Positions 12,387 through 17,350 of a stretch of DNA of 64,000 nucleotides are shown here, one piece after another; the first letter of the stretch is position 1; every line of letters starts with the position of its first letter. Below the pieces are notes generated by a model, which did not search any database, was not told the origin of the DNA, and saw only the letters and a program-made list of their open reading frames with translations. This DNA is from Escherichia coli (GTDB lineage: Bacteria > Pseudomonadota > Gammaproteobacteria > Enterobacterales > Enterobacteriaceae). Position numbers and translations under genes: made by a program. The DNA lies in NCBI RefSeq assembly GCF_051903065.1, contig NZ_CP178438.1. The stretch is one strand, 5' to 3'.

Positions 12387-12470
12387 GCCGCTTTATTATC
12401 GAGTTCGGTGACCGCCAGGACGGTCACTTCTGAGAAAAGGCATTTACACAGAATCTTAAACAGGTTCACG
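12387..12470 (+). mobile_element. IS256-family terminal fragment (3' end with terminal repeat), opposite orientation to adjacent transposase pseudogene
   Basis: Direct repeat of 622-700; terminal sequence ggcatttacacagaatcttaaacaggttcac mirrors the sequence at 12358-12386. Confidence 0.5.
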
Positions 12471-13108
12471 CAGCACTGGCGTCAGGGCATTGATTGTCGC
12501 TTTCACTGATTTGCTCCGGTTTCCCGTGGTCAGACTGCGCACTTTCTCCTTCAGCCTGTTCACACTCGTCAGGGCTATTTTCAGCTTCAACTGTTTGTGC
12601 CATGTCATACTGTACCCGAGGAACTTCTGCTCCCACGGGCGCGCCACCGCGCTCTTCTTCTCATTCACTTTCTGCTTCAGTTTGTTCTCTACGACGTCCT
12701 GATACCATCCAGCAATGGCCGCCCTGCGGCATGCCTTCCTGCCATTTCTCTCTTTGCCCGTCCCGGACTATTTCCTCTTTCAAGTAGCGGCGTATCAGCC
12801 TCAGCACCCGCCTGTCCTTTATCGTACTGGCCAGACGCGTCATCAGGAGTCTGTGATCCACACGGTCGAAGAACTTCTCCAGATTTATATCCACCACCCA
12901 CCGTTTGCTGCCCCGTATATAATGCTGTGCCTATTGCACTGCCTGCCATACGTTGCGTCCCAGCCGGAAACCGTGCCTAGAGTCTGAGAAGCTTTTGTCC
13001 ACGATGGCGCTTAAATGTTGCGCTATAGCTATAGCCTGCTGGATAGGCCTATCCACCACTGTCGGGATGCCTAAGGTTCTCACGCCGCCATCATGCAGCT
13101 CTGACGGA
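12471..13108 (-). pseudogene. Group II intron-encoded reverse transcriptase/maturase remnant (frameshifted, internally deleted, truncated at both ends by IS insertions)
   Basis: RT motifs GIPTVVDRPIQQA and DINLEKFFDRVDH; C-terminal maturase-like RPWEQKFLGYSMT; split across overlapping ORFs in different frames. Confidence 0.65.
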
Positions 13109-13172
13109 TGAGGTAGCCTGAGTTTAACGGACACTCCTTCCTGAAATAGAATGGCATCAGAAGGAGCTAATA

Positions 13173-13435
13173 ATGAGCAGAAAAACCCAACGTTACTCTA
13201 AAGAGTTCAAAGCCGAAGCTGTCAGAACGGTTCTTGAAAATCAACTTTCGATCAGTGAAGGCGCTTCCCGATTATCTCTTCCTGAAGGCACTTTAGGACA
13301 ATGGGTTACCGCCGCCAGAAAAGGGCTCGGTACTCTTGGTTCCCGCACGGTGGCTGAACTGGAATCTGAAATTCTGCAACTGCGTAAGGCGTTAAATGAA
13401 GCTCGCCTTGAGCGAGATATATTAAAAAAAGCCGT
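13173..13435 (+). pseudogene. IS600-like OrfA, disrupted by IS30 insertion 5 bp downstream of the A7 slippery run
   Basis: MSRKTQRYSKEFKAEAVRTV...ERDILKKA then IS30 left end; continuation [10 protein letters not shown] follows IS30 right end at 14657. Confidence 0.75.
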
Positions 13436-15564
<2,129 letters not shown>

Positions 15565-15573
15565 CCACTTCAT

Positions 15574-15897
15574 GTCGTTGAACTGCATAATACTGGCCCA
15601 AGCACCGCAACCAGTCTTGCTGCGCTTATCGCTTTATGTTCGATATTGCTGGCAAAACCAGTACAGGAACAGATGGTGGTGTTGGGCAGTATGACGCTTG
15701 GTGGAGTAATTAACCCGATACAAGATCTTGCTGCCAGTTTACAGCTCGCCTTCGACAGCGGCGCAAAACGAGTTCTGTTGCCGATGTCCTCGGCTATGGA
15801 TATTCCAACGGTTCCGGCAGAGTTATTTACCAAGTTTCAGGTGAGTTTTTACTCAGACCCGGTTGATGCTGTTTATAAGGCGCTGGGTGTGAATTAA
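15574..15897 (+). pseudogene. Lon-like protease C-terminal domain fragment (possibly BrxL-like), 5'-truncated by IS600-like element
   Basis: In-frame translation from IS boundary: ...NTGPSTATSLAALIAL...MTLGGVINPIQDLAASLQLAFDSGAKRVLLP... parallels Lon DGPSAG...[30 protein letters not shown]; no N-terminal ATPase region present. Confidence 0.5.
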
Positions 15898-15983
15898 TGT
15901 AGTAACTATTTTAATGAACTGGAGAGGACAATGGCTCAAGAACGTTCTGTAATTAAATTCATCAGACCGGTAATGACTCCAAC

Positions 15984-16487
15984 TTATTGATAGTGTTTTA
16001 TGTTCAGATAATGCCCGATGACTTTGTCATGCAGCTCCACCGATTTTGAGAACGACAGCGACTTCCGTCCCAGCCGTGCCAGGTGCTGCCTCAGATTCAG
16101 GTTATGCCGCTCAATTCGCTGCGTATATCGCTTGCTGATTACGTGCAGCTTTCCCTTCAGGCGGGATTCATACAGCGGCCAGCCATCCGTCATCCATATC
16201 ACCACGTCAAAGGGTGACAGCAGGCTCATAAGACGCCCCAGCGTCGCCATAGTGCGTTCACCGAATACGTGCGCAACAACCGTCTTCCGGAGCCTGTCAT
16301 ACGCGTAAAACAGCCAGCGCTGGCGCGATTTAGCCCCGACATAGCCCCACTGTTCGTCCATTTCCGCGCAGACGATGACGTCACTGCCCGGCTGTATGCG
16401 CGAGGTTACCGACTGCGGCCTGAGTTTTTTAAGTGACGTAAAATCGTGTTGAGGCCAACGCCCATAATGCGGGCTGTTGCCCGGCAT
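15984..16487 (-). CDS. insB: IS1 InsB (expressed as InsAB fusion by frameshift)
   Basis: 167-aa ORF overlapping insA in -1 frame. Confidence 0.85.
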
Positions 16488-16681
16488 CCAACGCCATTCA
16501 TGGCCATATCAATGATTTTCTGGTGCGTACCGGGTTGAGAAGCGGTGTAAGTGAACTGCAGTTGCCATGTTTTACGGCAGTGAGAGCAGAGATAGCGCTG
16601 ATGTCCGGCGGTGCTTTTGCCGTTACGCACCACCCCGTCAGTAGCTGAACAGGAGGGACAGCTGATAGAAACAGAAGCCAC
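16406..16681 (-). CDS. insA: IS1 InsA
   Basis: 91 aa [43 protein letters not shown]... Confidence 0.9.
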
Positions 16682-16890
16682 TGGAGCACCTCAAAAACAC
16701 CATCATACACTAAATCAGTAAGTTGGCAGCATCACCGGCTGTTTATGCTACCCGATTCTCAAATCAATTACCGAAAGCTTCTGTTCATCAACTAACTCAT
16801 TACTTTTAATGATGGGGCCCTTTCTGGGGCCCAAGAAATTAACAACGCTAACAAACAACATAAATAACAATAAATTAAATAAAAAATTTC

Positions 16891-16909
16891 ATTCCTGCAG
16901 GGGACACCA
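16891..16909 (+). repeat. Partial copy of argW tRNA-Arg 3' end (att-type direct repeat) marking island boundary
   Basis: attcctgcaggggacacca matches the 3' terminal 19 nt of tRNA-Arg(CCU) argW as recalled; no upstream tRNA body. Confidence 0.65.
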
Positions 16910-17350
16910 GATACCCTTCAAACCAAATCTACCTTCATCCCGTAAACGATGGGTTTGGCAGCACACTTGCCCTATATCTACTCATTTTTACTGCAACAGG
17001 TTGAAATCTCAGCACTGTCAGAAAGCGCTGATGACTAAACAGCCCTGGGCCGGGCGATGTAACCATCACACAGAATCCTGATAGCGAAATATGGCGTGAC
17101 TCGATACTTCACTCCGCAATGCATTCCTTGATGAATTCGCAGGCCCGTGATACACGCGACAGGTCGCTGAATGACGACAATGTCCTGGAAATCAGCGAAC
17201 CGTGTATCCGGAGTACATTTGAGCGACTGTACCAGAACATGAATGAGGTGTTTGGATTAGGCGATTATTAGCAGGGCTAAGCATTTTACTATTATTATTT
17301 TCCGGTTGAGGGATATAGAGCTATCGACAACAACCGGAAAAAGTTTACGT

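Follow-up and report, generated by a model that had tools for sequence, protein, structure and literature searches.

A decayed fragment of a group II intron reverse transcriptase/maturase gene between IS600 and IS1414 ends in Escherichia coli

The survey of Leclercq and Cordaux (2012; PMC3522654) lists 111 group II intron fragments, corresponding to 55 distinct copies, from 90 Enterobacteriales genomes; these were found mostly in mobile elements and islands and were mostly single decayed copies. According to the same survey, an intron carries the name of a reference from which it diverges by no more than 10% at the nucleotide level, E.c.I6 belongs to bacterial class C (the CFT073 element being so listed in Tables S2 and S3), class C introns lie downstream of rho-independent terminators "as expected", and, among the E. 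coli introns, E.c.I4 is the one whose homing targets are IS3-family transposase genes. The CFT073 copy of E.c.I6, whose ORF is also disrupted according to PMC3522654, retains both ends and all ribozyme domains in 1807 nt. E.c.I4-tr1 of K-12, known as ykfC, lies in the CP4-6 prophage.

Here we describe a remnant that represents the same phenomenon as the Enterobacteriales fragments collected in PMC3522654. It lies in a 64-kb stretch of E. coli DNA, hereafter called the window. Its intron has the same ORF architecture as E.c.I6 (RT and X domains, no endonuclease) and, as seen in sister genomes, the same type of terminator target as the CFT073 copy, the E.c.I6 reference located in the CFT073/ED1a selC-island PAI. 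Unlike the CFT073 element, this intron has been split by IS600 and truncated by IS1414 and is without domains V/VI, and its 5′ half is absent from the window; in sequence, the remnant is slightly closer (92.3%) to intact plasmid copies, such as that of NZ_CP040454.1, than to the CFT073 element. E.c.I4-tr1/ykfC, too, is a truncated group II RT gene of an integrative island; it was interrupted by IS5 and is situated next to the same kind of IS3-family::IS30 composite. The ykfC intron, however, truly homed into an IS3-type transposase gene and kept its 5′ end, whereas here the ISs entered the intron. The solved structures closest to the intact relative of the remnant are the GsI-IIC RT (6AR1, 2e-141) and the Eubacterium rectale IIC intron RNP (7UIM, 4e-108). 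Both of these enzymes are active; the remnant, in contrast, is without RT0/1, RT5, and most of the thumb and the D domain, and carries a D-to-N change in RT3. The remnant belongs to a known intron lineage and has decayed, and debris of this kind is well described. We are highly confident that the segment is an inactive internal piece of the RT/maturase gene of a class C (IIC) intron of the E.c.I6 lineage, and that the ISs subsequently invaded this intron.

Identity and lesions of the gene fragment

The remnant comprises 641 bases of a group II intron RT/maturase gene on the minus strand (12468-13108; Table 1), and the coordinates that had been proposed from the sequence alone in the earlier note, 12471-13108 on the same strand, were right to within 3-4 nt. 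Homology extends from 13109/13108 to 12467/12468, each end having an ambiguity of 1 nt that is common to the intron and the IS terminus. A megablast search against plasmids recovered genes annotated as "ltrA: group II intron reverse transcriptase/maturase" that were 89-92% identical, and the intact copy on plasmid NZ_CP040454.1 (L001; ltrA at 2662-4050, 462 aa, within a 1900-nt intron) was used as the reference. Rfam group II domains D1-D4 were located upstream and D5-D6 downstream of the L001 ORF. Between the remnant and this intact intron, 589 of 638 nt were identical (92.3%), with blastn E-values of 3.5e-151 and 1.7e-104 and tblastn E-values of 4e-63 and 1e-37; since such matches are far beyond chance, the minus-strand homology to the intron is real. 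The remnant corresponds to approximately nt 497-1525 of the 1900-nt intron, internal deletions included; about one-third of the intron is left, and the surviving part is wholly internal to the ORF. The L001 intron is 95-97.5% identical to E.c.I6 of CFT073 (NC_004431 4320108-4321914), and the blocks of the remnant match the CFT073 element at 88.8%, 89.1%, 93.2%, and 95.8%, values that straddle the 10% naming limit. Relative to CFT073 E.c.I6, L001 has ~20 extra nt at the 5′ end of the intron (2207-2246; GTGCGCCGGGCATGGCGCG ahead of TAGCGCCGTGACTGG), and this end is preceded by an AT-rich hairpin in L001.

Table 1. Coordinates of the remnant, its parts, and the neighboring elements in the window
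Feature	Position	Strand	Basis
Whole remnant of E.c.I6-type (class C) intron ORF	12468-13108	-	blastn/tblastn against L001; TIGR04416; partial Pfam RVT_1 and GIIM matches
Block 1	13109-13086	-	L001 2723-2746, 23/24 match
Block 2	13092-12717	-	L001 3001-3370, 90.7% identity
Block 3	12714-12706	-	L001 3398-3406, 9/9 match
Block 4	12703-12467	-	L001 3514-3751, 94.5% identity
RT codons 21-28 (PSELHDG), fused in frame to codon 114	13086-13109	-	Abuts and overlaps next block by 7 nt
RT2 (part), RT2a, RT3, RT3a, start of RT4	12717-13092	-	L001 alignment, translation, 6AR1 mapping
Complex-deletion scar	12704-12716	-	143 nt of intact gene replaced by 13 nt, 9 nt of which match L001 3398-3406
End of RT6, RT7 (FLGY), first third of X/maturase domain	12467-12703	-	L001 alignment; GIIM positions
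IS600 left end (IRL and 5′ part of orfA), truncating the intron ORF at codon 21	13109-13432	+	Other IS600 copies, IRL sequence
IS30 inside IS3-family element	13436-14656	+	97.6% contiguous alignment with K-12 IS911A::IS30A, K-12 annotation coordinates; NF033563 match
IS911-type (IS3 family) orfB part, in place of IS600 right part	14657-15585	+	K-12 comparison, PGAP
IS1414-type right-end fragment, 82 bp	12386-12467	+	96% identity to L003 1748-1667 and L004 2501-2585
IS1414-type body, left end at 12385, right end absent	11656-12385	-	IS1414 comparison
Former 3′ exon (flank of FadR/GntR regulator gene)	7127-8411	+	Homology to L015 from terminator T-run / AGCGCAG

At the protein level, the repaired translation of the remnant was 72% identical to intact LtrA over 252 aligned columns, which include a 48-aa gap. 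TIGR04416 (group II RT/maturase; 2e-47) was the sole NCBIfam family that it matched at E<=1e-3, and with 161.9 bits this match did not reach the full-length cutoff of 300 bits, as no more than about 45% of the protein survives. Pfam searches gave partial RVT_1 matches and a match to positions 1-33 of the 80-position GIIM profile (E 0.0027), which is cut off by IS1414; the maturase-like segment reported in the earlier note is therefore present. The intact relative has RVT_1 and GIIM without HNH, and the C-terminus of the remnant itself is gone. Given the 92% DNA identity to intact E.c.I6-type introns and the TIGR04416 match, the identification of the segment as a group II intron RT/maturase relic stands. 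Other kinds of RT were also considered, namely a retron, DGR, Abi, or DRT defence RT, as the intact relative weakly matches retron and Drt models. Such matches are below threshold, as with any RT, and the PDB entries 5HHJ and 5HHL, although labelled "retron-type RT", are intron maturases. The 92% DNA identity links the remnant to an element in which Rfam domains D1-D4 and D5-D6 surround the ORF, a GIIM maturase segment is present, and no retron, DGR, Abi, or Drt NCBIfam model joined TIGR04416 at E<=1e-3. A non-intron origin, the retron and DGR versions of which had been named beforehand as the outcome that would refute the group II reading, consequently has a practically negligible probability.

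Aligned with L001, the remnant resolves into four collinear blocks on the minus strand. Blocks 1 and 2 overlap by the heptamer GATGGCG, indicating an in-frame 261-bp deletion (codons 29-113) at a 7-bp microhomology; the junction of this deletion is also seen in the comparison with CFT073 E.c.I6. A complex deletion of ~130 bp (~48 codons) eliminated RT5 (YADD) along with the remainder of RT4 and the beginning of RT6 and shifted the frame, and block 4 stops at codon 363, which coincides with the IS1414 terminus. In addition, a 6-bp duplication (AIAQQ to AIAIAQ) and a CAG-to-TAG stop were found. The minus-strand translation runs mostly in one frame, PSELHDGGVRTLGIPTVVDRPIQQAIAIAQHLSAIVDKSFSDSRHGFRLGRNVWQAVQ*AQHYIRGSKRWVVDINLEKFFDRVDH...GMPQGG, and reads ...VENKLKQKVNEKKSAVARPWEQKFLGYSMTWHKQ...ATINALTPVLR after the frameshift. 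The reading frame is broken because of one TAG stop and one frameshift, as the earlier note had recognized, and its "several frames" come down to two.

Motif names are those of the standard group II RT nomenclature, in which the Xiong and Eickbush blocks 1-7 are supplemented by the 0, 2a, and 3a insertions. Motifs and catalytic residues were mapped by aligning the 462-aa intact protein with the GsI-IIC RT structure, with which it aligns end to end (PDB 6AR1, E 2e-141). In the numbering of the intact protein, the remnant has kept residues 21/22-28, residues 114-236, which include part of RT2, RT2a, RT3, RT3a, and the beginning of RT4 ("GMPQGG"), and residues 285-363, where RT6 ends and RT7 ("FLGY") and the first third of the X/thumb domain follow. 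Missing are residues 1-20/21, 29-113 (RT0, RT1, and the start of RT2), ~237-284 (RT5 with YADD, together with the remainder of RT4 and the first part of RT6), and 364-462; the start codon, the N-terminal extension, two-thirds of X, and the C-terminal domain are also absent. Both RT motifs quoted in the earlier note exist: GIPTVVDRPIQQA is RT2 and DINLEKFFDRVDH is RT3. Its statement that RT domains 3-7 were missing was incorrect, as RT3, RT3a, the start of RT4, the end of RT6, and RT7 are present and the quoted DINLEKFFDRVDH itself belongs to RT3. The catalytic residues D138 and D223/D224 of 6AR1 have D181 and D266/D267 as their counterparts in the intact relative. Of these, D181 has become Asn in the remnant (VVDMDLEKFFD to VVDINLEKFFD, that is, DMD to DIN in RT3), and the YADD aspartates fall inside the deleted stretch, leaving none of the three catalytic aspartates.

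We then searched for ribozyme sequences. The Rfam check for domains V and VI that had been suggested was run on 9000-17000 at E<=1 and found no intron domains, domains V/VI included; the sole match was a chance-level one to IS009 (E 0.12). A blastn search of the whole 64-kb window with the entire intact intron (word size 7, E<=10) revealed no further intron pieces and no ribozyme parts. With no six-domain catalytic RNA, the remnant is a fragment of an intron and not an intron.

Insertion sequences at the two borders

On the right side, the IS600 IRL (TGAGGTAGCCTG...) begins at 13109, which agrees with the IS600-like left end placed at about 13109 in the earlier note. The matches of thousands of IS600 copies start at 13108-13109; the sequence there, TGAGGTAGCCTGAGTTTAACGG, is the outermost part of the left inverted repeat of IS600. 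The intact IS600 found at the identical junction in genome AMSCJX02 (L009) matches the window only up to 13432. The sequence at 13416-15085 is 97.6% identical to IS911A::IS30A of the K-12 CP4-6 prophage, both IS30 junctions included. The joint between the IS600 and IS911-type sequences lies 3 bp from the IS30 insertion point. The right inverted repeat of the IS3-type element is truncated near 15585, beside a partial S16 protease gene.

On the left side, the terminal repeat of IS1414 (IS256-family), GAACCTGTTTAAG..., begins at 12467. The outer terminus of the 82-bp right-end fragment forms the 3′ border of the remnant and reads GAACCTGT, compared with GAGCCTGT in an intact IS1414 (L003). The IS256-family terminus reported on this side is thus indeed there, as the IS1414 end at 12467, with the qualification that it belongs to an 82-bp right-end fragment and not to a whole element. 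The IS1414 body at 11656-12385 is inverted relative to this fragment and has a 512-bp internal deletion, and the body and the fragment both carry 8 bp of IS sequence (L003 1741-1748). Since the target duplication (GTTAACTC) flanking the intact IS1414 in L003 is likewise 8 bp long, the scrambled IS1414 (11656-12467) looks like the product of intramolecular (self-targeted) transposition/inversion rather than two independent copies. An IS200C fragment of 148 bp (11509-11656) adjoins the IS1414 body, an IS66-family element whose tnpC contains an internal stop occupies 9670-11346, and these two, together with IS21 and IS4 fragments further left, make up an "IS graveyard" of ~9 kb.

Since both borders of the intron sequence are outer IS termini, the ISs inserted into the intron ORF and not the intron into an IS. 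The earlier note had favored the opposite, namely that the remnant probably goes back to an intron that invaded an IS and was cut down within this host. That reading has some appeal, as IS sequence lies on all sides of the remnant and several E. coli introns target ISs: E.c.I4 is found in IS629, IS911, ISEc16, and ISEc31, E.c.I2/I9 in Rhs-associated ISs, and E.c.I3 in IS679 (PMC3522654). Moreover, the neighboring IS3-type element is 97.6% identical to K-12 IS911A::IS30A, which hosts E.c.I4/ykfC in K-12. An intron that had homed into an IS would be expected to adjoin internal IS sequence, whereas both junctions here are outer termini. The adjacent IS911A::IS30-like element had suggested that the remnant might be E.c.I4 itself; this was rejected, as blastn gave no match to E.c.I4 of IAI39 or to K-12 ykfC and the amino acid identity was 31%. 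Membership of the E.c.I4 type (class A) was rejected as well, the junction with the IS3-family element being its outer IRL and the site at 15085/15086 being uninterrupted. This lack of nucleotide similarity, the 31% protein identity, and the unoccupied E.c.I4 site also speak against homing into an IS. As an observation in its own right, 15085/15086 is the exact position at which the 5′ end of E.c.I4-tr1 (ykfC, with the eyeA sRNA within) is found in K-12, and the uninterrupted IS3-type orfB of the window represents an empty E.c.I4 homing site 2 kb from the remnant.

Sister genomes and the original insertion site

The junctions were further examined in two sister loci, L008 and L009, in which a remnant of 43-643 bp (99.7-99.85% identity) is followed by an intact IS600 and then by approximately nt 3-500 of the intron. 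In L009 (AMSCJX02), collinearity with the window extends from 13432 to 378 (99.85% identity), the intact IS600 is 1264 bp long, and the intron continues past its right end. The 5′ half of the L008 locus gave an Rfam D1D4-3 match of 89 bits, and D5/D6 were found in none of the carrier loci examined (L008, L009). The junction in both loci reads ...GGCATCC/IS600/TCCGTCAG. Comparison of the IS600 flanks, ...GACGGCATCC/IS600/TCCGTCAGAGC..., with the intact gene, GGTATCCGTCAG, indicates a simple IS600 insertion into the intron with a 3-bp TCC duplication. A 3-bp target duplication is the one expected for an IS3-family element.

The 5′ end of the intron, GTGCGCC (GTGCGCCGTGACTGGCGC), is the same as that of CFT073 E.c.I6 at every base compared. 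In L008 and L009, it is preceded by ...GACGCGTAGTGTATTCACTACGCGTTTTTTGT, a hairpin with an 11-bp stem followed by a U-run (-18.4 kcal/mol, z -5.4), just past the stop codon of a zinc-dependent alcohol dehydrogenase gene (adh), and the intron target at the adh terminator reads TTTTTTGT / A.... E.c.I6 of CFT073 is also situated directly after a rho-independent terminator. The position expected of a class C intron, directly downstream of an intrinsic terminator, is thus seen in the sister loci and is not visible in the window.

An intron-free allele exists in strain MLI110 (L015), in which MFS-adh, the terminator, and a convergent FadR/GntR gene follow one another. The downstream flank of this allele, AGCGCAGAAAAGG..., is present in the window from 7127; this former 3′ exon lies 5.3 kb from the remnant, is inverted relative to it, and has an IS4 end before it. 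The 3′ end of the intron is absent at this position (window 7127), where the IS4 end and 25 unassigned nt are found instead. The IS4 terminal repeat (CCTTAACTGATCGGCATTA) and the 25 nt occupy 7083-7126, ending exactly at the point where the intron and the 3′ exon formerly met (AGCGCAG... at 7127). No examined genome keeps the 3′ intron-exon junction, so the evidence for the insertion site comes from the 5′ junction together with the empty allele, which is only 90-93% identical. When a chimeric query consisting of the intact flanks and the remnant was used to look for an uninterrupted ancestor, none of the best 60 of 1253 matches was covered in full at an identity above 95.6%. A copy at the adh terminator was not found in the portions of the PMC3522654 coordinate table that were consulted, and the 90 genomes of this survey may hold no carrier.

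In addition to the outer IS termini at both junctions, the TCC-flanked IS600 that sister genomes carry between two stretches of intron sequence, the natural 5′ end of the intron that abuts a gene terminator and not an IS, and the known empty adh/FadR site all argue against an intron that had homed into an IS, and we regard such an origin as very unlikely. The claim of an IS-invading intron is accordingly not upheld: the intron entered an ordinary intergenic terminator in the argW (tRNA-Arg) island, and the ISs came later. An intron found beside an IS therefore need not have homed into it; here, at least three IS families entered a class C intron that targets terminators and rearranged it.

Distribution, rearrangement, and possible function

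The remnant was present at >=99% identity in 154 of 20,395 records, and adh together with the 5′ half of the intron was found in 152 genomes. The IS chimera of the window type occurred in 8 of 5426 genomes, the other carriers having an intact IS600 among the matches listed. Some carriers are without most of the remnant, 43 bp being left in L008, and other truncated forms were also seen. Within the surviving parts, the lesions were already present in every carrier examined closely (the window, L009, and the 43 bp of L008). With ~150 carrier genomes and at least three alternative arrangements, the locus could serve as a lineage marker for the argW island.

In the window, IS600 sequence ends at 13432 and the IS30-carrying IS3-family element starts from 13410, which places the joint at 13410-13432. 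In AMSCJX02, the IS30-carrying element is located ~13 kb away and is oriented opposite to IS600. The DNA of ZF8-1 is identical to the window at the remnant locus; with respect to argW, the segment that extends from the remnant to the autotransporter gene is inverted in this strain. From the gene order in these three genomes, the window arrangement probably arose by inversion between two IS3-family elements, via the 23-bp stretch that they share or via IS30. ZF8-1 also has an IS1 that adjoins a stub of the other recombinant junction, and adh and the 5′ half are absent from its island as annotated; the position of this IS1 suggests that an IS1-associated deletion removed the 5′ half and adh after the inversion.

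The following history would account for the locus. The intron would have retrohomed into the argW island right after the terminator common to adh and the convergent FadR/GntR gene. IS600 would then have entered the intron ORF at codon 21, with the 3-bp TCC duplication, and an IS1414-type element would have inserted into codon 363. The ORF may next have acquired the 261-bp microhomology deletion, the ~130-bp complex deletion with loss of YADD, the stop, the 6-bp duplication, and the catalytic D-to-N change, and the 3′ third of the intron (the end of the ORF and domains V and VI) would have been lost through further IS-mediated rearrangements. Finally, in the small sub-lineage of the window, a rearrangement joined at 13410-13432, probably an inversion, would have exchanged the right part of IS600 for a second, IS30-carrying IS3-family element, and this rearrangement would have parted the remnant from the 5′ half of the intron. 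The identity of the remnant, its lesions and junctions, the TCC duplication, the terminator target, and the empty site are directly observed, whereas the succession of IS600, IS1414, and the deletions is inferred, as is the mechanism of the inversion and the later deletion.

The remnant cannot splice because it has no ribozyme; no RT can be translated from it because the start codon is missing, a stop and a frameshift interrupt the frame, and all three catalytic aspartates are lost; and it cannot be mobilized in trans because both intron ends are missing. Judged from its sequence, the remnant appears to be without function now. Two PGAP hypothetical proteins, WP_231331227.1 (66 aa) and WP_023148293.1 (70 aa), are annotated over it, and the remnant is near-invariant among carriers; the small ORFs or a transcript might accordingly have been co-opted, with function explaining the 99.7-100% conservation in ~150 genomes. 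The flanking 13 kb of IS debris, however, is equally invariant (99.85%), as would result from recent common descent and not from selection, the ORFs represent stretches of the RT and X domains that are out of context and contain no catalytic residues, and most of the remnant has been lost in some carriers, making co-option extremely unlikely. There is likewise only a slim chance that the fragment is kept for some use, either as a small peptide or as a transcript that titrates or interferes with the maturase of plasmid-borne E.c.I6-type introns, or, in a minor variant, that the IS30-carrying IS3 element and IS600 rearrange here by way of the target specificity of IS30 and not by homologous recombination, in which case the locus would be a recurrent inversion switch of the argW island. 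Near-invariance among carriers, like that of the surrounding IS debris, reflects recent common descent.

The RefSeq "hypothetical proteins" of identical loci (L002 8340-8745) should be annotated as a group II intron RT/maturase pseudogene fragment, and the importance of the locus beyond annotation is small. It offers a clean, datable case of the early inactivation and decay of enterobacterial group II introns in islands that is described in PMC3522654. "E.c.F11" of the 2012 catalogue was considered as a possible counterpart of the remnant and rejected, as it is the Drt3a/Drt3b defence RT locus of E24377A. That locus (L010, NC_009801.1 3030090-3031244) is now annotated as the antiviral RT pair Drt3a/Drt3b and is not an intron fragment.

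As its identity to ZF8-1 (L011) shows, approximately 15600-64000 of the window contains a CP4-type island segment with Ag43, yeeS/T/U, antirestriction, DUF932, and GTPase genes, after which come the csc sucrose genes and then the backbone genes dsdA, emrKY, evgAS, oxc/frc, and ypdA-F. In other strains, the argW island carries genes for HsdR-like, DEAD-box helicase, ATP-binding, and TerB-family proteins where the window is deleted.
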